This document shows, in pieces, positions 37,676 to 50,155 of a DNA stretch of 64,000 nt. A program made the position numbers and the translations under genes. The notes under the pieces are model-generated. The model was not told the DNA's origin, did no database searches, and saw only the letters and a program-made list of their open reading frames with translations. The DNA is from an uncultured Chloroflexia bacterium (lineage in GTDB: Bacteria > Chloroflexota > Chloroflexia > QHBQ01 > JADMIH01), in the NCBI GenBank assembly GCA_963797095.1, contig CAWCNY010000003.1, forward strand, positions 352,001 through 416,000. Reading direction: 5' to 3'. Positions within the stretch are counted from its first letter, which is position 1, and each line of letters opens with the position of its first letter.

Positions 37676-39574
37676 TCACTGCCCTCCATACCGCCAGTCG
37701 TAATAGTGCCTCCCAACGTTCCCGAACTGCACCTGGAATCCTTCAGGAGCCTGCGGGTCGTATGTCACGGTGCGGCGCTCGAACACCTGCATCAGCACGT
37801 TGTGTGACTCGCCCCCAACCTGCACCGTAGCCCAGTAAGCCTCCGAGATCGGGTAGCCTGCGATATAGATCCAATCCCAGGTCTGCGACTTGAACCAGTT
37901 CAGGAACACATCTGGCACATTATGTCCCGTTTCGGGCAAATACGCGCCTACCGTCACGGTCGCGCCCAGGTCGGCGTTCTGCCCCACGGTGCCATCCCTG
38001 GCGAGGGTTGCATCCACGGGTTGCCCTGTCCTGTCCTCCGCTTTCGCCGCGTCGGTCCCCGCGCCCAACGAGTTGAACGTGGCGTAGGTAGGCGCATTGG
38101 CATCGTCAATATCGCCCGCCACCGGCACTTCGGCGGGCGTTCTCGCCTCGGACGCCGTCTGGCCCGTCGAGATCCGCCCCGTCACCATATCGCGCGCCAG
38201 CGCGCCGGGCACTACCACGAAGCGCGAAGGCTGGGGCGGGTTGGCAACTGGCAGGTCCATCCTCCCCTTGTCGAAGTACACCACCTGCTGCTGGCCGTCC
38301 TGCCCCTCGGCATAAGGCTCGGTCCCCGAGTAGATCGCGGTCGGCCCCCACAGATATGGCCGCTGAGCCGTACCGTTCGCCACAGGCAGGTCGGCCACGC
38401 GCCACTGGTACCAGAAGCCCGCGTCGGGCAATTGCAGGCGCGGCTTCGGCTGCCAGTTGGCGTTGAACCCGTCCACGATCTTCTCGCCACCCGACCCGTC
38501 CGTACGCACCAACCACGACTCGTGTGTATAGAGGAGGCTGCCGTCCTTCTGCCTGGTGGTGCGCGACACGCGCACAAGCATCGTCTTGGAATCCGCCGAG
38601 AAGAATGGAGGACCATAGTCGGTCACTTCGCCCTTGTAGGCTATGCTGTGGGGGTGCGACAGGATGATCTTGGCGTTCTCCCCATTGAAATCGGCCAGGA
38701 ACAGGCGCTGCCCATCGCTGCCCGCGCTATTGATCGCGTAGGCCACCTTGTTGATCCCCGTGGACCACGACACGCCCGCCCGCGCGATTGCCGTCTGCTT
38801 GACCGACTTTGCCACGCTCACGAACTGCCCGTTGGTCAGGTCGAGCACGCCGTACTCGATGCCGTCCGTGACCGCCAGGTAGCGCCCGCCCGGTGCCCAC
38901 CCGCCCGCGATCACGAACCAGTTGCGCGGCTCCCCAGGCAGGGCTTCCACGCCTACCGGCGAGCCGACCCCTCCCGCCACCTGCAGGATGCGCCCAGGCC
39001 ACCCGGCGGCTATGCGCGTGCCATCGGGCGACCACGCCACCGCCGCTGCCCCCGGCGGCAGTGAGGGGATATCCTCGCCACCCGGCACCAGCCACGAATC
39101 GCCGCCGCCTGACGGGATGATGTGCAGATTCCCCTTCGCTATCGGCGTGCCGTAGTTCGAGCTATCAACATAAGCGATGAAGTGCCCATCCGGCGACCAG
39201 AACGGCGGCGATGCCACACCCGTTGCCAGCATCTTGAGGTCCGAGCCGTCGGGGTTGACGGTGTAAAGTTCGGTGCGCTCGGTGGTCACGGCCAGCTTTT
39301 TGCCGTCGGGCGACCACGAAGCAAACCACACCCGCAACCCCTGCGTGACCTGCCGCTTGTCGGTGCCATCCAGGCGCATTACATAGAGATCACGCGCACG
39401 ATCAGGCAGGGAGTCGTCGGCATAAGAGAAGAAGTCGGGGGGAGATGTCGCGGCGGGAGGTTGCGTCTGCGCCGCTACAGTGGTGGCATGGAAGGCCGGT
39501 GCCGACAACAACACCAGGGAAACGAACACAAGCAAAAGCCGCGCAATGCGCTTCGGGAGGAGGTTAGCTGACAT
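37676..39574 (-). CDS. Secreted TolB-like beta-propeller fused to a C-terminal Chloroflexi-type module
   Basis: Signal peptide; WSPDG repeats; YFDKGRMD, GYPISEAYW, QVFERR, GNVGRHYYDWRY. Confidence 0.8.
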   Translation of the reverse strand: MSANLLPKRIARLLLVFVSLVLLSAPAFHATTVAAQTQPPAATSPPDFFSYADDSLPDRARDLYVMRLDGTDKRQVTQGLRVWFASWSPDGKKLAVTTERTELYTVNPDGSDLKMLATGVASPPFWSPDGHFIAYVDSSNYGTPIAKGNLHIIPSGGGDSWLVPGGEDIPSLPPGAAAVAWSPDGTRIAAGWPGRILQVAGGVGSPVGVEALPGEPRNWFVIAGGWAPGGRYLAVTDGIEYGVLDLTNGQFVSVAKSVKQTAIARAGVSWSTGINKVAYAINSAGSDGQRLFLADFNGENAKIILSHPHSIAYKGEVTDYGPPFFSADSKTMLVRVSRTTRQKDGSLLYTHESWLVRTDGSGGEKIVDGFNANWQPKPRLQLPDAGFWYQWRVADLPVANGTAQRPYLWGPTAIYSGTEPYAEGQDGQQQVVYFDKGRMDLPVANPPQPSRFVVVPGALARDMVTGRISTGQTASEARTPAEVPVAGDIDDANAPTYATFNSLGAGTDAAKAEDRTGQPVDATLARDGTVGQNADLGATVTVGAYLPETGHNVPDVFLNWFKSQTWDWIYIAGYPISEAYWATVQVGGESHNVLMQVFERRTVTYDPQAPEGFQVQFGNVGRHYYDWRYGGQ

Positions 39575-39654
39575 CAAGGTTCTCCTAACTCATGATCTGG
39601 GGGAAAGGTCCGGAAAAGGACAGGAGATTATAACACACATCCCCGTACAGACAG

Positions 39655-39687
39655 GAGCAGGGACGACCTCTAAGATCGTCCCTGCTC
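39655..39687. terminator. Hairpin after the paralog pair
   Basis: GAGCAGGGACGA/TCGTCCCTGCTC. Confidence 0.55.
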
Positions 39688-39709
39688 ACCCCTCGACGTG
39701 TGTGTTCCT

Positions 39710-41678
39710 CTATTGCCTGGCGTAGATGAAACTTTGCTCCGTACCGTTACTGTCGTTCCTGACCACAAGTTGCAACCTATTGCCCCGAGAGTTATCGAGG
39801 CTGATAGTGATCGAAGTCGCAGGCAATGAAGGGTGGGTAAAGGTCAGAGGCTCGCCGTCAAACGTGGTATTCAACGTGAGGATGGGAGTTGGGCACGGCA
39901 CCCCACTGCACGAGTCGAAGAGGTCCATATTCAGGGCATCGCCCTGTGCTGCTATCTGGAGCTTCAGGATGCCCCGAGGCTCCGGATCGGCGGCGACTTG
40001 CAACCAGGTGCCGGCGTAGTTGGCCGCTACGACCTTATGGAATCTGAGCTCCTGGTTGCCATCAAAGACGACCGCCAGCCTGTTCTCCGCCGCGTTGTTG
40101 AGCGCGATTCTGAACTGGTGGCCGTCAATTGTGATGTCGAACGGCTCGTTATTATATGCGGCGACGGCAGGCGGGCGGGGGGCACAGGCTCGCGCCGCAC
40201 GACTGGAACCATGTGACTCTGAGATTGGCAACATCCGGCTCGATCCAGAGCTTGCCCACGCTGCCGACCGTGTTATCATCGTTGAGCCATGTCCCGGCGT
40301 AGTCAGCGGGCCTGGCCAGGTGGAACGTGAGGTTCTGGCTGCCCCTGAACAACACGAACAGCTTGGGCGGCACATCGGCCACCAACGTCATGCTGAAACT
40401 GAACCCATTCAGCGTCACATTGAGGGGCACCCCGCTGAATGCGACGGTTCGCTGCTGGTTGCCGCACAGGCCGGTGCTACACGGGCTGAACCATTGCACG
40501 GTCAGGTTGTTATTGGCCGCCAGCTTGATCCATATCTTGCCGACGGTAGTTGTGCTTGCATCGTCGTTCACCCAGGTGCCTACAAAGCTGCGCGGGTCGG
40601 GCTGGATAATGTTGATAGTAGGCGTGGGAGAAGGTTGCGGCTGGCCTGTGGTGGGCGTGGCGGTTGGCTGCTGGGGCTGAGGCTGCGGCGGTGTGCCGGT
40701 CGGTGGCGCGGCGGTCGGCACAGGTGCTGTGGGCGGAGGAAGCGCACCTCCATACCGCCAGTCGTAATAGTGCTGCCCGATATTGCCCATCTGCACCCTG
40801 AACGCTGCGGGAAAGCTCGGCACATAAGTGACCACGCGCCGCTCGAACGCCTGGATCATCACATCCACGTTCGGCACATTGGCTATTTTCACCTTTGCCC
40901 AGTACGGTTCCGAGATCGGCAGCCCCGTCGCATAGAACCAGGGGTCCGATAGGCGGGCGTTGACGTTGCGGCCCGTAACAGGGTCGTACACTGGGCCTGT
41001 CTGGTTCAGGAAATCCCAGATTACCTTCGGGATGTTGTGCCCGGTGCTCGGCTCATAAAAGAGCATCTGGGTTCCTGGGTCTGCCGCCTTGCCGGGGTCT
41101 ACGCCCGTCTGTCCGTCCTTGTTGATAGTATCGGTGGCAAACTGACCGCCCCTGTTGTTGGCCCGATGGTCGCCAAGGGGAGTGTTGCTCACGCCCTGGA
41201 AGCTGACGTAGGTGGGGGCGTTGGGGTCGTCGGTGTCGGAAGCGAGAGGGATGTCGGCGGGAGGGCGATCTTCATAGCTGGAATTGCCGACCTGCATTTT
41301 GCCTGAGATAAGTTCGACCGTCAGCAGGCCGTTGGTCACGAAGAATGGGTTGCTCTGGTCCCCGTTGGGGTCGTTGATCTCCATGCGGCTCTTGTCGAAG
41401 TATTGGACAAGACGCTTGCCATCGACACCTTCAGCGTAGTCTTCGAGCAGCCCACCAGTGTTGGGAGCGGGCCCCCAGTAGTAGGAGCGCTGCACCTCCC
41501 CCGACGAGACCGGCAGGTCGGTGCGCTCCCAGGTGCGGAGGAACGCGGGGTGCGCGTAACCCGCCGCCTGGGCAGGCGCATCGAGCGTGCGCGCCACGAC
41601 CCCACCTGAGGTCGGCAGGGCCGCGCTCACTATTGCCAACAGCGCCAATAATGAAAGAGCTCGTCGCTGGCCTCGCAT
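39710..41678 (-). pseudogene. Frameshifted secreted protein (paralog of 41850-43760): Chloroflexi-type module plus three GTW-type repeats
   Basis: ORF 40152-41678 continues in another frame to 39710; deleting one base around the G6 run at 40177-40182 restores repeat spacing C-x8-Y. Confidence 0.75.
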
Positions 41679-41698
41679 CGCTTTGCTCCATTCTCAGG

Positions 41699-41722
41699 CT
41701 CACAGGCAGATCTGCCTGTGAG
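41699..41722. other. Perfect 24-bp palindrome upstream of the frameshifted paralog
   Basis: CTCACAGGCAGATCTGCCTGTGAG. Confidence 0.6.
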
Positions 41723-41849
41723 GCGAGCAATAACCAACACTGTGGCACGATGTAGTGCTTGGCGCGTGCTGACTCTACTTCATCGTTTTGCAGCCGGCGG
41801 GGAGAATCCTACATAGGATTGTCCCCGGCAGCCACTATGCTCTAAATCC

Positions 41850-43760
41850 TCATTGTTTCTTGAGCCTGTTCGTACGGTCGCCGCCGGGGGCATTCGTCAC
41901 ATCCACTCGCAACAGGGTCCCTCCCGCGTTGTCGAATGTAATCACAAATGTCCGGGTGGGCAATACGGTAGTATTGATCGTCAAAGGCTCACCGTCATAC
42001 GTGCCGCTGACGGTGCCGTTATCGCAGGGCGAGCCGCCGCATACGCCGAACCAGTGCACGTTGACTGTATTGCCGGAGGACGTGACCTCAAACCGGGCTA
42101 TGTCGCTGCTGTTCGCATCGACGTTTACCCAGGTGCCGTTGTAGTCCGAGGCTTTCACTTTGTGGAACCTGAGCAGCGTAGTGCCCTGATAGATCACAAG
42201 CAGTTTGGTGCCCCCCGCGTTGTCAAACGTGATCCTGAAGGAGCGGGTATCAAGGGTGATGTTGAACGGCTCACCGCTGTAGGGGGCGGTCTTCTCCTCG
42301 TTGTAGCAGAGGCCGGGCGAGCAAGCACCGAACCACTTGACCTTCAAGTTACTGTTGCTACCGGTGATCCACAGCTTGGCCGCGCTCGCTGTAGCTGCAT
42401 CATCGTTCAGCCAGGCACCCGAATAGTCCTCGGCTTTGACCTTGTGGAACAACAGGGTATCGGTCCCCTGATAGACTACCTTCAGCTTTGGAGGCGAGTC
42501 GCTGGCTATCGACAGGCTGAAACTGCGTCCGTCGAGAGTGATGTTGAACGGCTCGCCGTTGTAGGGGGCGGTCTTCTCCTCGTTGTCGCAGAGGCCGGGC
42601 GAACAGGCACCGAACCACTTGACCTTCAGGCTGTTATTGCCCACCTGGCTGATCCACAGCTTGGCCGCGCTTCCCGTATTGGCATCGTCGTTCAGCCAGG
42701 TGCCAACGAAGGCATCGGCTGTGTGCGGCACCAGCGTAGCGGTGGGGGTAGCCGTGGGCTGCGAGGGAGGAGTGGTCGGTGGAGGCGTGGTAGTAGGCGG
42801 CACCGTCACGGTGGCCGGTGGTGTGGAACTCCCATATCGCCAGTCGTAGTAGTGCTGTCCGATGTTGCTCATCTGCACCTGGAAGCCTGACGGCGCGCTA
42901 GGCACATAAGTGACCACGCGCCGCTCGAACGCCTGGATCATCACATCCACGTTCTGCACGTTAGCTATTTTCACTTTGGCCCAATAGGGGTCCGAAATCG
43001 GGTAGCCCGTGGTGTAGAACCAGGGGTCTGAGAGGCGCCCGTTCTCGTTATGTCCGGTTGACGAGTTATAGATCGGCCCGCTCAGGTTCAGGAAGTCCCA
43101 CACGATCTGCGGGATATTATGCTGGGTGGCAGGCTCGAAGTAGGCGAACCTGGTGCCCGGCAGATTAGCCATCGCCGGGTCGTCACCCACCTGCCCGGCC
43201 TTGTTTATGGTAGCAGTGGCAAACTGGCCCACTTTGTTAGGCGCATGATGGTCACCAAGGGGAGTGTTGCTCACGCCCTGGAAGCTGACATAAGTGGGAG
43301 CATTGGGGTCATCGGTATCGGAGGCGAGAGGGATGTCGGCGGGGGCGCGGTCCTGGTAAGCGAAGTTGCCCACCTGCATTTTGCCTGAGATAAGCTCGAT
43401 GGTCAGCAGGCCATTGGTCACGAAGAATGGGTTGGACTGGTCCCCGTTGGGGTCGTTGATCTCCATGCGGCTCTTGTCGAAGTATTGGACAAGGCGCTTG
43501 CCGCCCGGTCCTTCGGCATAGTCCTCAAGCAAGCCGCCGGTGTTGGGGTTCGGACCCCAGTACCACGAACGCTGAACCTCGCCGAACGACACTGGCCTGT
43601 CGGTGCGCTCCCAGGTGCGCTGGAACGCGGGATGGGCAAAGGCCTCGGCCAGTGAAGGCCCATTTAGAGTGCTTGCGGTTGCACCACCCGATCCGACCAG
43701 AGCGGGCGCGGCCAGCACCGCCAGGGCCGCGTAGGATAGATATCGCTGTTTGTTCCTCAT
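41850..43760 (-). CDS. Secreted protein: Chloroflexi-type module, P/T linker and three ~95-aa repeats (GTWxNxD...WFGxC)
   Basis: Signal peptide; WERTDRPV, YFDKSRME, QAFERR, HYYDWRY; GAGGAGG RBS. Confidence 0.82.
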   Translation of the reverse strand: MRNKQRYLSYAALAVLAAPALVGSGGATASTLNGPSLAEAFAHPAFQRTWERTDRPVSFGEVQRSWYWGPNPNTGGLLEDYAEGPGGKRLVQYFDKSRMEINDPNGDQSNPFFVTNGLLTIELISGKMQVGNFAYQDRAPADIPLASDTDDPNAPTYVSFQGVSNTPLGDHHAPNKVGQFATATINKAGQVGDDPAMANLPGTRFAYFEPATQHNIPQIVWDFLNLSGPIYNSSTGHNENGRLSDPWFYTTGYPISDPYWAKVKIANVQNVDVMIQAFERRVVTYVPSAPSGFQVQMSNIGQHYYDWRYGSSTPPATVTVPPTTTPPPTTPPSQPTATPTATLVPHTADAFVGTWLNDDANTGSAAKLWISQVGNNSLKVKWFGACSPGLCDNEEKTAPYNGEPFNITLDGRSFSLSIASDSPPKLKVVYQGTDTLLFHKVKAEDYSGAWLNDDAATASAAKLWITGSNSNLKVKWFGACSPGLCYNEEKTAPYSGEPFNITLDTRSFRITFDNAGGTKLLVIYQGTTLLRFHKVKASDYNGTWVNVDANSSDIARFEVTSSGNTVNVHWFGVCGGSPCDNGTVSGTYDGEPLTINTTVLPTRTFVITFDNAGGTLLRVDVTNAPGGDRTNRLKKQ

Positions 43761-43926
43761 CCTCCAGCCTCCTCTTTGAGTATAAAAGCAGCCTTCAGGG
43801 CGGCATGATACGACGCTGCTGCACAATTATGGGTACGCGATTGCCCACAATTATACAACGTAATCACAAAGATCGCGGTCTCGTTGAAAACAGCAAGATC
43901 TTCGCGCCTGGTGGTACAATTACGGC

Positions 43927-45063
43927 ATGACGAGCTATGATCCTACGGCGGTTGCGACCGCCGTCAGCGCGGTTATCTCTGCCATCGATCTTCCTCATGG
44001 CCGCCTCGCGCTCCCTGTCTTCCTTCCCGATGCCACTGTGGGCGTGGTCCGCACCCTCGACGCGAGCGACCTGGAGGCGTGCGGCGTGCAGGCCCTCGTA
44101 ATGAACACCTTCCACCTGACCCAGCACCCAGGCTCGTCTACGGTGCAGGCGTTGGGCGGACTTCACAGGATGGCGGGCTGGCAGCGTCCTATCATCACCG
44201 ACTCGGGGGGCTTCCAGGCGTATTCCCTCATACGGCAGAACCCCAGGTTCGGCTCGATGAGCGAGCGCGGGATCATCTTCCGCCCCGAAGGCTCCGACCG
44301 CAAGTTCCAGCTTACGCCCGAAAAAGCGGTACAACTCCAGATCAGCTACGACAGCGATGTAGTGATAGCGCTCGATGATTGCACGCATGTGGACGCCACC
44401 TATGAGGTGCAGAAAGAAGCCGTAGAGCGCACCATCAAGTGGGCCAAACGGTGCAAGTGCGAGTTCGAGCGATTGCTCAGCGGCAAGCGTGGCGAAGCCA
44501 GGCCGCTACTCTTCGGAGTGATCCAGGGCGGGGGCTTCCACGAGCTTCGAAAGCGATGTGCCGAGGAATTGCTTGAGATCGGGTTCGACGGGTTCGGGTT
44601 CGGCGGCTGGCCCCTCGATTCGGAAGGGCATTTGCTGACCGATATCATCTCCTACACGCGACAGCTTGTGCCCGCGCACCTGCCGATGCACGCTCTGGGC
44701 GTGGGCCACCCGGCCAACGTCGTGGAGTGCGCGAAAGCGGGCTACAACATGTTCGACAGCGCCCTCCCCACCCGCGATGCCCGCCATGGCCGCCTCTACA
44801 TGTTCATCTCCGAATCCGACCCTTCGCGAACATCCCCCCATGCCTGGTTCGCCTTCCGCTACGTCACGGACGACAAGTACATCAAGTGCGAGCACCCTGT
44901 TTCAGCCCTGTGCGATTGCCTCACATGCACTCGCTACCCGATGGGCTATCTCCACCACCTCTACAAAATAGGCGATGCGCTATTCATGCGCCTGGCGACG
45001 ATCCACAACCTGCGCTTCATGACGATGCTGATGGAAAAGCTTGCCCCAAACGCAGGTAAGTAG
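43927..45063 (+). CDS. tgt: tRNA-guanine transglycosylase family protein (divergent)
   Basis: NTFHL, TDSGGFQ, LDDC, GVIQGG, LGVG, MFDSALPTRDARHG; Zn site CDCLTC...HN. Confidence 0.88.
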   Translation: MTSYDPTAVATAVSAVISAIDLPHGRLALPVFLPDATVGVVRTLDASDLEACGVQALVMNTFHLTQHPGSSTVQALGGLHRMAGWQRPIITDSGGFQAYSLIRQNPRFGSMSERGIIFRPEGSDRKFQLTPEKAVQLQISYDSDVVIALDDCTHVDATYEVQKEAVERTIKWAKRCKCEFERLLSGKRGEARPLLFGVIQGGGFHELRKRCAEELLEIGFDGFGFGGWPLDSEGHLLTDIISYTRQLVPAHLPMHALGVGHPANVVECAKAGYNMFDSALPTRDARHGRLYMFISESDPSRTSPHAWFAFRYVTDDKYIKCEHPVSALCDCLTCTRYPMGYLHHLYKIGDALFMRLATIHNLRFMTMLMEKLAPNAGK

Positions 45064-45147
45064 GGACAACGTAAGCCTCACCTTGATAAGCTACAAATGC
45101 TAGACGAGGGCCTGTCATCCTGACTACACCATCAACGAAGCAAAGAC

Positions 45148-45179
45148 TTGTAGGGGCGAGGCATGCCTCGCCCCTACAA
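45148..45179. repeat. GTAG-type REP palindrome
   Basis: TTGTAGGGGCGAGGCATGCCTCGCCCCTACAA is a perfect palindrome. Confidence 0.8.
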
Positions 45180-45297
45180 CGAATTCTTCCTTCAACGCTG
45201 TAGATTTGTACTCAAGATGACACAGATGTTGACAACACAAAATGAGCTAAACTACATCCAGTCTTCCCAATAAGCTTGAGACCGTTCTTCTCGAAAT

Positions 45298-46137
45298 ATG
45301 GCAGAAGTTGAGGAGCAATTGCTGGATAAGGTGGTGCAGACGGTGCTGGCAAGCGCAAAGTACCGCCATATTAGCCCTGCCCTCGTTCGGGATCTCAGTC
45401 GCGCCGAGATAGGCAAAGGGCGCGGGCTGAAAGACACTATCAAGGCGGTCAAGAACAAGTTACACCAGGTGGCGGGGGCCTATCTCGACGGCGGGGGCGA
45501 CCTATCGGCGCATACATACGAGCGGTGGCTAACCGAGTTAAAGGACGCAAGCAGCTCGCCCAACGCGGACGACCTGAAGCGCGCGTGCCGCGAGATCATG
45601 GCGCACCATAGCTCCACCCGCGAGCGCCTGCCCATCCTGGATGAGTTCTACAGCGCCATCTTTGACGCATTACCCCCCGTGCGCTCGATGGTCGATGTGG
45701 CGTGCGGCCTCAACCCCCTTGCCATCCCCTGGATGCCACTCGCACCCCGTGCAGAGTACCACGCATACGACATCTACAGTGATATGATGGCGTTCCTGGG
45801 CGACTTCATGGCTTTTACAAGCGTGCGGGGAGACGCCGAAACACGCGACGTTGTCGCACAACCGCCCTCGGCACAGGTGGATCTGGCGCTGGTACTGAAA
45901 GCGATCCCCTGCCTTGAGCAGATCGACAAGTCGGGGGGCCGCCGCCTGATCGATGGCCTGAGCGCCCTGCACATGGTCGTGTCGTTCCCCGTCGCCAGCC
46001 TGGGCGGCAAGAACAGGGGCATGTCCGCAAACTACGAAGCACAATTCTGGGAACTGGCTGCTGACCGGAATTGGAGCGTCAGAAAGTTGGAGTTCAAGAC
46101 TGAACTGGCCTTTCTGATTACAACACAAACAACCTGA
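45298..46137 (+). CDS. 16S rRNA (guanine(1405)-N7)-methyltransferase homolog (Rmt/ArmA/Sgm/FmrO family)
   Basis: KNKLHQVAGAY, HSSTRERLP, DVACGLNPLA (SAM binding), YDI, LKAIPCLEQ, VVSFPVASLGGKNRGMSANY, terminal ELAF. Confidence 0.9.
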   Translation: MAEVEEQLLDKVVQTVLASAKYRHISPALVRDLSRAEIGKGRGLKDTIKAVKNKLHQVAGAYLDGGGDLSAHTYERWLTELKDASSSPNADDLKRACREIMAHHSSTRERLPILDEFYSAIFDALPPVRSMVDVACGLNPLAIPWMPLAPRAEYHAYDIYSDMMAFLGDFMAFTSVRGDAETRDVVAQPPSAQVDLALVLKAIPCLEQIDKSGGRRLIDGLSALHMVVSFPVASLGGKNRGMSANYEAQFWELAADRNWSVRKLEFKTELAFLITTQTT

Positions 46138-46148
46138 GGAGAAGCACC

Positions 46149-46490
46149 ATGTCAACAGATCCACGCGCGGAATACGACAGGATCGCCGATGAGCTTGCGA
46201 GCGAGGCATCGGCGATCAGCAGCAAGATGTTCGGCATGCCCGTTCTCAAAAAGAACGGCAAGGCCTTCGCGGGGTTCTACGGAAAGAACGACGCCATGAC
46301 CTTCAAGCTGACGGGCGCTGCACACGCAGAGGCGCTGGCCTTGGCTAGAGCGAGGCTCTCTGACCCATCAGTGATGGGGCGACCGATGAAAGAGTGGGTG
46401 GAAGTGCCGGCCGAACACGCCAGCAGGTGGCCTGAACTTGCCAGGCAAGCCCTGAGCTACCTCGACGCGAGCCTGAAGAAAGAGAGCTAG
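46149..46490 (+). CDS. Small TfoX-N/MmcQ-YjbR-like protein
   Basis: KMFGMP...NGKAFAG...GRPMKEWV; GAGGAG RBS; begins 11 nt after the methyltransferase stop. Confidence 0.7.
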   Translation: MSTDPRAEYDRIADELASEASAISSKMFGMPVLKKNGKAFAGFYGKNDAMTFKLTGAAHAEALALARARLSDPSVMGRPMKEWVEVPAEHASRWPELARQALSYLDASLKKES

Positions 46491-46990
46491 CGCCTGCTTC
46501 GCGCCTTCTGCTCCAGCACACCCTTCACCCGCATATGGTCGGCCAGCGAGGCTTTGCGCCGCCTGCGGGCATACAGTCTCTGCCTCATCGTATTGAGAGC
46601 TGAGCTTTGCGCGTCCACCAGCATGTTCACCGTAAACTCTGTGCGCGTTGGCGACACCGCTTCATACACAAACCTGTTGATCAGGTGGTTGCCCACAAGG
46701 TAGCGGAAGGTGATCTCTTCCTTAGCAGCGTAATAGATCAGTTCCATCCGCACCACCCCCACAGACGATTCCGTGCCATCCTTTCGCACCGGGGAGAGCA
46801 CCATGACCGAGCCGGGTTTGTAAGGTTTGCCCTCCCATGCAAGCTTGAGCTGGGGCAGAGGTTCCCCTTCGAAGTCGCGCGCCCAGTAATCGGGGTTCCC
46901 GGTCAGATTGAATACCATCTCGATCGGGGCCTCGATATACATGGTGTAAGCGTAAAGGAGCCGTGCTCCCTGCAAGGCTTTTTCTAGCAT
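46487..46990 (-). CDS. Hypothetical protein, SRPBCC-like
   Basis: IEAPIEMVF start motif; basic C-terminal helix. Confidence 0.6.
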   Translation of the reverse strand: MLEKALQGARLLYAYTMYIEAPIEMVFNLTGNPDYWARDFEGEPLPQLKLAWEGKPYKPGSVMVLSPVRKDGTESSVGVVRMELIYYAAKEEITFRYLVGNHLINRFVYEAVSPTRTEFTVNMLVDAQSSALNTMRQRLYARRRRKASLADHMRVKGVLEQKARSRR

Positions 46991-46994
46991 TAGG

Positions 46995-47110
46995 AGTTCC
47001 AAGTGCCAAATTCCAAGTTCCAAATTCCAAGTTCCAAGTTCCAAGTTCCAAGTTCCTGGTTGTTGCGATAATGGACAACAGACGATAGCCTCAACCAGGA
47101 ACTTGGAACT
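46995..47110. repeat. Composite heptamer repeat (AGTTCCA)n with inverted arm
   Basis: About 8 tandem units, GTTCCTGGTTG, spacer, CAACCAGGAACTTGGAACT. Confidence 0.9.
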
Positions 47111-47111
47111 C

Positions 47112-48926
47112 TCACAAAGGTCCCGGGCCTACAAGCTCATCGAGCCTGTTGATCATACGCTCCAGGATGCTGAAGGCTCGTTCCACAGGCTCAGGGGTGG
47201 TCATGTCTATGCCAGCCAATTTGAGCGCGTCGATAGGGTAGAGGGCATCGCCCGTTTTCAGGAAGCTGAGGTAGCGGTCAACGGCGGGCTTGCCCTCTTT
47301 CAGCACCTGGTCGGCGAGGGCGTTGGCTGCCGATATGCCGGTTGTATACTGGAACACGTAGAAGTTGCCGAACAGGTGGGGGAACTCAGCCCAGGTGATG
47401 CCGACGCGCGCGTTGTCCACATCCACCGCATCGCCGTAGGCCTCCTTATAGAGGTCGGCCATCAGAGTGCTCATGCTCTCCGCCGTCAGACCCTCGCCAC
47501 GTTCCTCTCGTTCGTGGCATTCAATCTCGAACCGGGCCAGCGTTGGCATAATAAAGAGGTAGCGGTGGAAATTGCTCATCGCCTCGGCCAGAATCTCAAG
47601 CTCGAAATCTACATCCTTCGTCTTCGCCAGGAGGTCGGCACGCATCAGCGCCTGGTTGAAGTTGGACGCAGTCTCGGCCACAAACATCGAATAATTACTG
47701 TACACCGGGGGTTGCGTCTGCCACGCGAAATATGAGTGCATCGAGTGGCCCATCTCGTGTGCCAGGGTACTGACATTCTCCAAAGTGTCGTCGTAGCTGA
47801 GCAGCAGGAAAGGGTGAGTGCCGGGCGCTCCCGACGAGAACGCACCGCCCGCCTTCCCTTCGTTGGGCAGCACGTCCACCCAGCGCTCTTGATAAAGACC
47901 GCGCTTCATCGGCACAGCATACTCGTCGCCCAGCGGGGCCAGCCCTTCCACCACCATCTGCATCCCCTCTTGATACGGGATCTTCTTCTGCGAGCGGATC
48001 ATCGGCACATCGATATCATATCCGTGCAGTTTGTCCACCCCCAGCCCCCGCCGCTTGATATCCCAGTAACGGTGCCACAGGGGAAGCTTGCGCTTGAAGG
48101 TATCAATCGTTGTGTAGAACACCTCGACAGGTATGTTGGTGGCCCCCAGGGCAGCTTCCAACGAATTGGCGTACTTGCGAGCACGCGCGTAGAAGACATC
48201 GCGCTTGATGCCTATACTGAGCGCGGCGGCGAAGGTGTTCTTCATGCCGATGTACGCATCGGCCTGCGCCTCCCATGCAGCTTTGCGCACGTCGCGGTTC
48301 GTGTTCCTTATCAAGGTCTCGATGTTGCCCTGCCCCAATTCTACGTCGTGGTCGCTGTCGTCCTTGATCCTGCCGAATTTGAGGTCCGAGTCGGCCAGGG
48401 CGCCATGCACGCGATCTCCCATATTCGCCAGCTCAAGCACATTGGCAAGCACCTCCTCCACCTCGGCGGAGCGGATGTGCTCTCGCCTGCGGGCCAGCTT
48501 ATCGAAATAGTGGGCGTAGCCGCGCAGGCCCTCCGATTCCTGCTGCATCGCGTGCAAGCGCGACGGGTCAATAGTCAGGATCTCAGGCTCGAAGAAGGCC
48601 GACGCCGACAAATATCTCCCGATCAGGCCCACAGACTTACCGTAGCGGGCGATAGACGCCTGGTCGTTCATATCGCCGAAGTGGTACATCCCGGCGTACT
48701 GGTAGATGTGGAACACTTGCACGGCCAGGTCGTCGCGCCGTTTGAGCGCCTCCAGCAACGTATCTGCCGACTCGCCTAACCTTCCGGCGTATTTCTCCAG
48801 GTCGCCGAAACCGGCTGTAGCCTCGGCGACCGCCGCCTCCCAAGCCTCGTCCGACGAGAAGATGCTGCGGGCATCCCAGGTCATATCTTCGGGTACTTCG
48901 CTGCGTTTCCGCAATGCTGTGGTCAT
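47112..48926 (-). CDS. pepF: Oligoendopeptidase F (M3B)
   Basis: RWVD...GKAGGAFS, TLAHEMGHSMH, FVAETAS, FYVFQY. Confidence 0.95.
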   Translation of the reverse strand: MTTALRKRSEVPEDMTWDARSIFSSDEAWEAAVAEATAGFGDLEKYAGRLGESADTLLEALKRRDDLAVQVFHIYQYAGMYHFGDMNDQASIARYGKSVGLIGRYLSASAFFEPEILTIDPSRLHAMQQESEGLRGYAHYFDKLARRREHIRSAEVEEVLANVLELANMGDRVHGALADSDLKFGRIKDDSDHDVELGQGNIETLIRNTNRDVRKAAWEAQADAYIGMKNTFAAALSIGIKRDVFYARARKYANSLEAALGATNIPVEVFYTTIDTFKRKLPLWHRYWDIKRRGLGVDKLHGYDIDVPMIRSQKKIPYQEGMQMVVEGLAPLGDEYAVPMKRGLYQERWVDVLPNEGKAGGAFSSGAPGTHPFLLLSYDDTLENVSTLAHEMGHSMHSYFAWQTQPPVYSNYSMFVAETASNFNQALMRADLLAKTKDVDFELEILAEAMSNFHRYLFIMPTLARFEIECHEREERGEGLTAESMSTLMADLYKEAYGDAVDVDNARVGITWAEFPHLFGNFYVFQYTTGISAANALADQVLKEGKPAVDRYLSFLKTGDALYPIDALKLAGIDMTTPEPVERAFSILERMINRLDELVGPGPL

Positions 48927-49006
48927 ATATGCTCCTTTCTACGACGAAGGACGAAGGGCTAATGGGTGCGACCTTCGTCGTTCGACTTCCATCTTCGTTC
49001 TCGAAG

Positions 49007-50155
49007 TTATCGTGCGTTCGCCAGTGCAACCGCTCTCTGGGCAGCTTCGTCCAGGGTAGTAGCGGAGGGGAGGTTGGCGGCTTCGAGGATCTTGCGTCCT
49101 TCTTCTGCGTTGGTACCTACCAGGCGCACCACCATCGGAACATCCGGCTTGAGAATGTCCAGCACGTTGATTATGCCTTTGGCGACCGCATCGCCCCTGG
49201 TAATGCCTCCAAATATGTTGAACATGACGGCTTTCACGTTGGGATCGGACAGGATGATGCGCAGGGCGGCCTCCACCTTGTCCTCGCGCGCCCCGCCGCC
49301 GATATCGAGGAAGTTGGCGGGCGTGCCGCCGTACTCCTTGATGGTGTCCATGGTCGCCATCGCCAATCCCGCGCCGTTCACCATGCAGCCGATGTTGCCA
49401 TCCAGTTTGACGAACGAAATACCGGCGGCGCGGGCCTGCCGCTCCGACTCTTCCTCCTCGGCGGGGTCGCGCAGTTCCTCGGCCCAGGGCTGGCGGAAAA
49501 GGGCGTTGTCGTCCAGCACCATTTTGGCATCGAGGGCCATCAAACCGTTGGAGGTCATAGCCAGCGGGTTGATCTCCACCAGCGAAGCATCGTGGTCGAT
49601 AAGGGTGCGCACCAGGCCCTTGGCAATTTTCATGAAATCGCGGACGTACGCCCCCAGGCCCATCCCGAAGGCAAGCTCGCGGGCCTGAAAATCGAGCAGG
49701 CCCATGCGCGGATCGACCGACACTTTGATGATAGCATCGGGGTTTTCTTTGGCTACCTGCTCGATCTCCACGCCGCCTTCCGCGCTGCCCATCACTATGA
49801 TCGATTTAGTCCCTCGGTCCACCGTCGCGCCCAGGTAATATTCCTTCTTAATATCGGCGGCGTCGGCCACCAGCACGCGCTGCACTACCTCGCCTTTGGG
49901 GTTCTGCTCGTTCTGCAGGAGCCTCCCCAGGATGTTTTCGGCGTTGTGTCGGGCGGCCTCCACATCCTTCGAGTATTTGACGCCCCCGGCCTTGCCCCGG
50001 CCGCCCATCATCACCTGTGCCTTGATCATCACAGGCTTCCCGATCCTGCGGGCGATCTCCTCCACCGCGTCGAGCGTATCGGCCACGTAGCCTTCGTTCA
50101 CGGGCACCCCGGCGCGCGCCAGCAGTTCTTTAGCCTGATATTCGTGGAGCTTCAC
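49007..50155 (-). CDS. sucC: Succinyl-CoA synthetase beta subunit (ADP-forming)
   Basis: [52 protein letters not shown]; GTG after GGAGG. Confidence 0.95.

Follow-up and report, generated by a model that had tools for sequence, protein, structure and literature searches.

Why does a bacterial chromosome place a transglycosylase of the tRNA-guanine transglycosylase (TGT) family, altered in its substrate pocket, directly ahead of a predicted 16S rRNA methyltransferase of the type known from aminoglycoside resistance? The question is raised by a 64,000-nt stretch of DNA from an uncultured Chloroflexia bacterium (contig CAWCNY010000003.1, positions 352,001 to 416,000; hereafter the window), in which the TGT-family gene, here termed tgt2, precedes a gene of the FmrO/Rmt/Sgm family, here termed rmt (Table 1). 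Across the window's phylum, the two genes form a unit that has been gained, kept, lost, moved and sometimes fused jointly. Judging from their co-occurrence, their persistence when unlinked, their fusions and their co-divergence, TGT2 and Rmt are probably functionally coupled, and TGT2 appears to be a conserved, constrained base-exchange enzyme with intact catalytic residues whose presence depends on an Rmt-type methyltransferase. An earlier note, made from the letters of this stretch alone, had proposed such a coupling; these lines of evidence support the proposal as such and separate none of the chemistries that it listed.

Joint inheritance of tgt2 and rmt

With the window TGT as query, 80 genome loci were retrieved, mostly named Ktedonobacteria, Anaerolineae or Chloroflexia. 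An Rmt homologue lies downstream on the same strand in 67 of them, the aligned rmt segment mostly starting 2–110 nt past the aligned tgt2 end. Three of the 13 other loci are cut short or have little downstream room, and where whole genomes were searched for loci with no rmt in the flank, each held exactly one FmrO gene elsewhere (10/10). Cultured carriers of the pair include Thermogemmatispora and Longilinea arvoryzae (loci L041, L049 and L033).

Co-occurrence was then counted in 151 genomes sampled evenly from the phylum, each at least 85% complete, with window-type TGTs called at E ≤ 1e-90. PF01702 proteins are present in 134 genomes, TGT2 in 32 and FmrO in 33 (31/150 and 32/150, respectively, without the unpublished genome G038). 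The TGT2 and FmrO sets are identical except for G128, which lacks TGT2 and contains only an FmrO fragment with two stops; FmrO is accordingly found in all 32 TGT2 genomes. Each gene occurs in 21 of 99 genera, and the counts match inside the six families polymorphic for the pair (f2, f8, f12, f14, f15 and f23). In 30 of the 32 carriers both genes lie on one contig, at most 1.4 kb apart, with their order reversed in three. The adjacency on which the earlier note had staked its proposal is thus conserved in genome loci and phylum-wide, as well as on plasmids (see below). The two proteins also co-diverge (Mantel r 0.78 over 69 paired loci; 0/999 permutations as high), with the caveat that related genomes are non-independent, neighbouring genes co-diverge trivially and shared descent by itself gives much of such a correlation. 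TGT2 is the slower-evolving partner (mean distance 0.40 vs 0.57 for Rmt).

A scan of metagenomes supplied a negative control. The search patterns, taken from a Clostridia-type alignment, were generic, and 71 of 80 loci proved to be canonical tgt; rmt was found in the flanks of none of these 71, as compared to five of the nine loci with a TGT of the GGWP type (named after its pocket motif, see below). Two of the other four GGWP-type loci are cut within tgt, one ends ~60 nt after it, and the fourth (L122:2165-5086) has other neighbours: here, TspO, a 2H/CPDase-like phosphoesterase and a cupin are encoded ahead of a divergent GGWP-type TGT with the motif GYGGWPIKN.

Several variations on the pair were encountered. 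In two lineages, a gene has been inserted between tgt2 and rmt (L004:5140-5949; L114:2507-3670); it encodes a metallophosphoesterase on the rmtB2 plasmid and a 387-aa protein without a Pfam family in G050/L026. Some loci (L121:985-2495, G069, G123 and G140) have a tandem arrangement in which another FmrO-family gene, more divergent in sequence, comes after the first. Two TGT2 homologues with 79% and 70% identity (P0007 and P0052) are 'uncultured bacterium' records in nr (AIA13179.1, mislabelled as 'RibD C-terminal domain protein', and AIA10754.1), whose accession series may stem from functional resistance selections.

Gene fusions associate TGT2 with enzymes acting on the 30S subunit. P0121 (709 aa) and P0122 (663 aa) are TGT2::FmrO fusions and P0123 (671 aa) is an RsmH::TGT2 fusion (PF01795, 340 bits), all three with the GGWP motif; canonical-type TGTs among the 120 longer proteins listed are instead fused to QueA, an MnmC-type domain or Mpl-ligase domains. 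Such canonical-type fusions are widespread (P0124–P0240), with an MnmC-type S-adenosylmethionine (SAM) methyltransferase domain (PF05430), QueA or Mpl-type murein peptide ligase domains as partners. An 896-aa frame holding FmrO in G135 was rejected as a fusion, being open from stop to stop only and overlapping tgt2 in another frame. Beyond fusions, an RsmF-like (m5C1407-type) methyltransferase gene lies directly behind rmt in 32 related loci, RsmI (C1402 2′-O) directly ahead of tgt2 in 12, RsmE (U1498) nearby in 23, and a queuosine-precursor transporter gene (TIGR00697, 116 bits against a cut-off of 51) shares the orientation of the pair in 19. With many of the loci coming from Anaerolineae, they represent few independent events, and none of the four genes adjoins the pair in the window itself.

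The pair also occurs on clinical plasmids. A tblastn search of the window TGT against 72,556 plasmid records returned 71 records, the best 16 of which share 45–53% identity with it and stand apart from canonical tgt (at most 37% among the matches listed). In all five records opened, a tgt of the same type lies upstream of rmtB2, rmtG, rmtD2 or rmtE2 (Table 1); the earlier note had pointed to such a linkage for rmtD and rmtG, which is true and extends further. For rmtG and rmtE2, the two genes overlap by 8–11 nt. IS91-family elements are found on the flanks of the pair in 5/5 of these records, so that the absence of mobile elements, likewise asserted by the earlier note, holds for the window—no transposase was found among the open reading frames (ORFs) scanned around the pair—and fails for the plasmids.

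A separate TGT clade with an altered pocket

TGT2 matches PF01702 (309.8 bits) and barely passes TIGR00430, the equivalog model for queuosine-34 (Q34) enzymes (313.6 bits; cut-off 306.75). The window genome (6.0 Mb in 8 contigs, 93% complete) encodes a canonical tgt on another contig (G000:C5:194423-195484; PF01702 score 540 bits vs 309 for TGT2) and queA at C5:555954-557018, away from the tgt2 locus. As both lie elsewhere, TGT2 is not the cell's queuosine enzyme, and the separate canonical tgt that the earlier note suggested looking for does exist. Among the other TGT2 genomes of the phylum sample, 30 of 31 likewise hold a higher-scoring canonical TGT (at least two PF01702 matches). The window genome further encodes a Vut_1/YhhQ-type transporter (C3:273473-273985) in addition to QueA, with marginal matches to QueC (27 bits over 58 residues) and QueF (27 bits) at C5:279185 and C5:210268; this gene content suggests that the organism may salvage queuosine precursors instead of making them. 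We also considered TGT2 as a drug-insensitive duplicate ('resistant target copy') and rejected this by reasoning: because tgt is dispensable in E. coli, little selection would be expected for such a copy.

A FastTree phylogeny was built from 106 TGTs, namely the window copy, its relatives from the 80 genome loci, four copies from plasmids, 19 further TGTs of the phylum, and those of E. coli and Bacillus (a truncated copy, L008, was excluded). A branch of length 0.71+0.92 and support 100 separates the window copy, the 80 loci and the plasmid copies from E. coli, Bacillus and the 19 phylum TGTs. TGT2 is thus a deep, well-supported separate TGT clade, within which the plasmid copies are the sister group to the genome loci of the window type. 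The earlier note had proposed a phylogeny to test whether GGWP-type enzymes form a clade that co-occurs with rmt; the tree and the co-occurrence counts agree with this. The clade is strongly constrained: among 41 aligned relatives, identity is 60–82% and 87 columns are invariant. The phylum has a third TGT type as well (L103–L106, from G007:C13, G097:C75, G115:C43 and G012:C27), which forms its own supported group on the canonical side of the tree; its Pfam match is restricted to positions 92–355, the Leu231 position is deleted and Glu235 is lacking.

Alignment of TGT2 to Z. mobilis TGT chains with HMMER mapped individual residues (Z. mobilis numbering is used for positions compared across the clade). 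Equivalents of the catalytic and base-binding residues are present (D92 for Asp102, D150 for Asp156, Q200 for Gln203, D277 for Asp280, as well as Gly229/Gly230 and Arg286/Arg289), as are all Zn ligands (C329/C331/C334/H360 for Cys318/Cys320/Cys323/His349). GGWPLDS stands in place of Gly229-Gly230-Leu231-Ala232-Val233-Gly234-Glu235, and FLPDAT in place of FMPVGT (Val45 to Asp, Gly46 to Ala). The alignment confirms the residue mapping of the earlier note. A further change that it listed, Met260 to Leu (L257), is present and yet non-diagnostic, with Leu in 6 of 17 canonical TGTs and Met in the plasmid relatives.

The substitutions are properties of the whole clade. Across the window copy and the 80 loci, Trp231, Pro232, Leu233, Asp45, Arg52 and Asp287 occur in 81/81 sequences, Asp234 in 80/81 and Glu235 in none, while Asp102, Asp156, Asp280, Gln203 and the Zn ligands are kept in 81/81, bar Cys320 (79/81). 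The 17 canonical TGTs have Leu231 (15/17), Gly234 (17/17), Glu235 (15/17) and Val45 (17/17). The clade-specific invariant changes cluster in the substrate pocket. The plasmid copies share Pro232 (5/5) and Asp45, have Trp or Phe at position 231 and retain Met260 and Tyr258; their nearest natural relatives (64–81% identity) include records named Clostridia and Christensenellales, and G-G-W-P is invariant in all 21 aligned members of the Clostridia-named branch.

According to the account of the switch in PMC3660597, the peptide between Leu231 and Ala232 of Z. mobilis TGT can flip, so that either its NH faces guanine-34 N7 via a water molecule or its carbonyl faces preQ1, each state being held by Glu235. 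Neither element is found in the TGT2 clade, which has Trp-Pro in 81/81 and Glu235 in 0/81, and the switch would be inoperable there because Pro232 lacks the NH and Glu235 is absent. Nor is a base the size of queuine likely, since the residue at position 233 is larger (Leu) rather than smaller. Other regions that contact RNA or the second subunit are recognizable. A loop that in E. coli TGT becomes ordered on the flipped A37 (as described in PMC13416341) is 4–5 residues longer in TGT2 and nearly invariant. Of the four-residue aromatic hot spot of the TGT homodimer given in PMC5395182 (Trp326, Tyr330, His333 and Phe92), Trp326 corresponds to Tyr337, Tyr330 and His333 are kept as Tyr341 and His344, and Phe92 is replaced by Met.

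Which RNA and which base

The partner enzyme sets the frame for any proposal. The window methyltransferase matches PF07091 (205.3 bits; cut-off 27), remains under the cut-off of the generic Rmt model NF000466 (215.1 vs 250 bits) and is the sole FmrO gene of its genome. Among relatives with a solved structure, Sgm matches best (E 4.6e-46, full length), ahead of RmtB and RmtC. Seven RmtC residues, Lys20, Arg50, His54, Arg211, Lys236, Arg241 and Met245, were described as critical in the RmtC study (bioRxiv 10.1101/712810); five of them are kept or conservatively swapped in the window protein (Lys20, Arg50 as Lys, His54, Arg241 as Lys, and Met245), whereas the Arg211 and Lys236 equivalents are Gln208 and Ala233. 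By this likeness, the window Rmt is predicted to methylate G1405 of 16S rRNA.

We tentatively favour a role for TGT2 in the decoding centre of the ribosome, where it would share its RNA segment with Rmt and have m7G1405 or a neighbouring guanine as its possible target. Rmt would methylate N7 of G1405 in helix 44 of 16S rRNA; TGT2 would then attack the N7-methylated, glycosidically labile guanine (or an adjacent one) via the usual Asp280 covalent ribosyl-enzyme mechanism and replace the base either with plain guanine, in an erasing or proofreading step, or with a 7-deazaguanine-type base obtained by salvage. The predicted pocket would suit such a substrate, in that Pro232 would offer guanine N7 no backbone NH, Glu235 as its partner is missing, and Trp231 together with the new acidic residues Asp45, Asp234 and Asp287 would line the region. 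Helix 44 is favoured because the fusion partners of TGT2 (Rmt and RsmH) are 30S-acting enzymes, because the pocket has apparently lost the element reading an unsubstituted N7 while gaining Trp and acidic residues, and because N7-methylation turns guanine into a good leaving group. It is favoured, too, because 7-methylguanine is a known competitive inhibitor of TGT, as stated in PMC9299380. Moreover, Rmt confers resistance without need of TGT2, whereas TGT2 is not found without Rmt, an asymmetry that suggests that TGT2 acts after, or because of, the methyltransferase.

The components of this reading differ in standing. That the substrate is 16S rRNA and not tRNA falls just short of an even balance. 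It is rather unlikely that m7G itself is the base that leaves, and methylation-primed exchange in its most specific form, with m7G1405 in helix 44 swapped for a salvaged 7-deazaguanine-type base that a YhhQ-type transporter of the extended operon would import, is a long shot.

A number of points weigh against action on 16S rRNA or against a strict dependence of the two enzymes. The RNA and the base used by TGT2 are inferred, and the same applies to the G1405 target of the window Rmt, given its five of seven RmtC-critical residues and its score below the Rmt equivalog cut-off. TGT2 retains the entire tRNA-type architecture, including Arg286/Arg289 and the Zn subdomain, and passes, if barely, the Q34 equivalog. 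G1405 is part of a base pair within helix 44, which belongs to a large particle, and its rRNA context is C-G-U. TGT requires a hairpin loop with U-G-U according to PMC4425180, which also mentions earlier studies that excluded bovine and rat liver rRNA as substrates of E. coli TGT. The transporter in 19 loci is equally compatible with an ordinary and an exotic 7-deazaguanine substrate. At the GGWP-type locus L122, the flanks covered (4 kb upstream and 2.2 kb downstream) contain no rmt, and this TGT may represent a different use of the same pocket. Finally, the tgt linked to rmtE2 is 5′-truncated, and 1589 plasmid records carry an Rmt/ArmA-family gene, yet TGT2-like genes are confined to the best 16 tgt matches; most acquired methyltransferases (RmtB1, ArmA, RmtC and RmtF) therefore travel without TGT2.

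The main rival, nearly as likely as the favoured 16S reading and taken by itself somewhat unlikely, casts TGT2 as a tRNA position-34 transglycosylase with another base preference (preQ0, another salvaged 7-deazaguanine, or guanine only), which would retune the wobble position for ribosomes carrying m7G1405 as a physiological compensation. The neighbouring rRNA methyltransferases of the RsmF, RsmI and RsmE type modify nucleotides around the codon-anticodon pair, and their theme of decoding-centre tuning covers tRNA position 34, too. The TGT architecture, catalytic residues, Arg286/Arg289 and Zn subdomain are retained, TIGR00430 is narrowly passed, and three of the four aromatic hot-spot residues of the homodimer as listed in PMC5395182 are kept or conservatively changed (Phe92 being Met). 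The co-oriented queuosine-precursor transporter of 19 related loci is in line with this rival, as is a window genome that resembles that of a precursor salvager (Vut_1 transporter and QueA; marginal QueC and QueF). However, position 34 is already served by the canonical TGT, and loss of the NH donor to guanine N7 through Pro232 would presumably weaken ordinary G34 binding. Action on tRNA also leaves unexplained why TGT2 is not found without FmrO (32/32; 10/10 when unlinked) and why it is fused to 30S-acting methyltransferases when canonical TGTs are fused to tRNA-34 enzymes.

An improbable variant reverses the order or dispenses with catalysis: TGT2 might install a base that the FmrO enzyme then methylates, or act mainly as a partner in 30S binding or assembly, presenting helix 44 to the methyltransferase. 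Fusions with 30S methyltransferases in both arrangements would agree with this, as would the stronger conservation of TGT2 relative to Rmt and the possibility that the window Rmt, lacking two of the seven RmtC-critical residues and scoring below the equivalog cut-off, has a substrate other than plain G1405. Against it, the strict retention of the TGT2 catalytic residues argues for catalysis, and the plasmid-borne RmtB, RmtD, RmtE and RmtG, mostly found without TGT2, are annotated as G1405-N7 methyltransferases, the acquired enzymes of this family conferring resistance as stated in the RmtC study (bioRxiv 10.1101/712810).

That the two genes are merely old neighbours, co-inherited and co-transferred by chance with TGT2 a drifting redundant paralogue, is very improbable. 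Adjacent genes do co-diverge and co-transfer trivially, rmtE2 functions beside a truncated tgt, and the plasmid linkage could simply mirror donor synteny, as IS91-family elements pick up neighbouring DNA and flank every opened copy; but both genes persist when unlinked (10/10), are jointly present or absent in six polymorphic families with a broken rmt just where TGT2 is missing, have fused three times, and include a strongly constrained TGT2 with its clade-specific changes in the pocket.

The locus and its relation to known systems

The three co-oriented ORFs described by the earlier note were verified in the ORF list (Table 1), and the genes within ~8 kb have housekeeping functions (a PepF-type M3 peptidase, succinyl-CoA ligase beta and a PALP+CBS enzyme).

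Table 1. Features of the tgt2-rmt locus in the window and gene orders in the plasmid records opened
Feature	Position	Strand	Details
TGT2, predicted TGT-family base-exchange paralogue, GG-W-P-L-D pocket loop	43927..45063	+	378 aa; PF01702, TIGR00430, second tgt in genome, residue mapping, clade
Spacer, 234 nt, containing 28-nt palindrome (45150-45177)	45064..45297	no strand	Sequence reading
FmrO/Rmt/Sgm-family SAM methyltransferase, predicted 16S rRNA m7G1405 enzyme	45298..46137	+	279 aa; PF07091, Sgm likeness
Small lineage-specific ORF outside the conserved pair	46149..46490	+	113 aa; starts 11 nt past rmt; TfoX_N below cut-off
Providencia plasmid			tgt - metallophosphoesterase - rmtB2
K. pneumoniae pKP13f			rsmH - tgt - rmtG - truncated rsmI; tgt/rmtG overlap 8 nt
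K. pneumoniae plasmid 2964TF			tgt - rmtD2
Two further plasmid records			5′-truncated tgt - rmtE2

The spacer palindrome is perfect, with a 14-bp stem, and occurs once within the window. It is dispersed in the genome (11 sites at up to three mismatches; none for a reversed control), looks like a repetitive extragenic palindromic (REP) element and probably accounts for a tgt2-rmt spacer longer than in related loci. In a promoter and terminator scan, only this palindrome exceeded shuffle expectation; the spacer contains no sigma-70-like promoter, and no T-run follows the hairpin on the + strand. An Rfam search for riboswitches and other known RNAs gave no match at gathering score in 13 related loci, and just two sub-threshold matches at chance level in positions 40000–50000 of the window.

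The small ORF behind rmt has the position and the 11-nt spacing described by the earlier note, which had called it TfoX-like; the label itself is weak (Pfam TfoX_N, 17.2 bits, E 0.006; gathering cut-off 30.1). It has no NCBIfam match, tblastn at 1e-5 found no homologue in 85 other loci, and it was ruled out as a third component. A small ORF behind rmtE2 belongs to no family, and tblastn gave no match between it and the one in the window. On the other side of tgt2, three large neighbouring ORFs on the – strand (41850-43826, 40152-41678 and 37676-39577, together spanning 37676-43826) have the look of secreted paralogues: by eye, the first two have a long N-terminal region and repeated C-terminal modules in common, and in the third a similar region sits at the C-terminal end. 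Two of the three have no match in Pfam and one matches a PD40 repeat only.

The plasmid tgt-rmt adjacency is in print solely as an annotation remark. A 'putative tRNA ribosyltransferase' upstream of rmtG is mentioned in PMC3904158, section 3.8 of the review PMC9311965 describes rmtG as an operon member with rsmH, tgt and 'rsmL', and the Fig. 1 legend of bioRxiv 10.1101/712810 includes uncharacterised Chloroflexi methyltransferase homologues. Literature searches for a functional link returned such annotation-level remarks and no paper that defines this TGT subfamily or its pocket, or describes how it co-occurs or fuses with rmt. The present analysis adds the connection with four clinical rmt lineages, the counts of co-occurrence across the phylum, the finding that unlinked pairs persist, and the canonical-tgt control.

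TGTs are textbook base-exchange enzymes of tRNA and, as recently found, DNA, and an Rmt-dependent subfamily would add a substrate class or a mode of modified-base recognition. The Rmt family, in turn, comprises the most damaging aminoglycoside-resistance genes of Gram-negative pathogens and appears here as half of a conserved chromosomal two-enzyme unit, which in some lineages sits among housekeeping decoding-site methyltransferases. This bears on the origin of rmtB2, rmtD, rmtE and rmtG and on any fitness role of the co-mobilised tgt. If methylation-primed exchange were true, it would be without precedent in rRNA of any kind, both as a transglycosylation and as the placement of a base of the queuosine family, and the clinical rmtD, rmtG and rmtB2 cassettes would represent one half of a more extensive natural pathway. 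Direct tests are feasible, given cultured carriers, small soluble-type enzymes and a TGT covalent-trap chemistry able to name the RNA substrate.

Compared with the bacterial Tgt enzymes of Z. mobilis, E. coli and T. maritima, TGT2 is of the same PF01702 fold family (~35% identity), with the catalytic residues and the Cys3His Zn site. It differs from them in its separate deep clade, the Trp-Pro in the switch, the missing Glu235, the Val45 to Asp and Gly234 to Asp changes, an acidic residue at 287 and the longer conserved A37-contact loop, and in being a second copy beside a canonical tgt (30/31 other carriers) that is linked or fused to 16S rRNA methyltransferases instead of QueA. Precedent for a TGT fold that changes target and base via its pocket is given by ArcTGT (tRNA position 15), DpdA (DNA) and QTRT1 (queuine); within the superfamily, Val233Gly and Cys158Val permit queuine use, as described in PMC4425180. 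An identity of TGT2 as DpdA or archaeal TgtA/ArcTGT was rejected at scores far under the respective cut-offs (DpdA in NCBIfam, 21.9 vs 200 bits; TIGR00432, 94.7 vs 350 bits).

Like Sgm, RmtB, RmtC and ArmA, to the first three of which it aligns over its full length, the window Rmt holds most of the residues critical in RmtC (5/7). Unlike them, it is chromosomal, in a housekeeping setting and from a non-producer, scores below the equivalog cut-off and has the Arg211 to Gln and Lys236 to Ala changes. The closest counterpart of the pair is the plasmid ORF annotated as 'tRNA ribosyltransferase' or tgt beside rmtD, rmtG, rmtE and rmtB2, which shares with TGT2 the subfamily, the tgt-then-rmt order, Pro232 and Asp45. 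In contrast to the window copy, it is carried by Proteobacteria on IS91-flanked resistance islands, keeps Met260 and Tyr258, and has its nearest relatives in records named Clostridia or Christensenellales, as opposed to the Chloroflexi lineages of the window's relatives.

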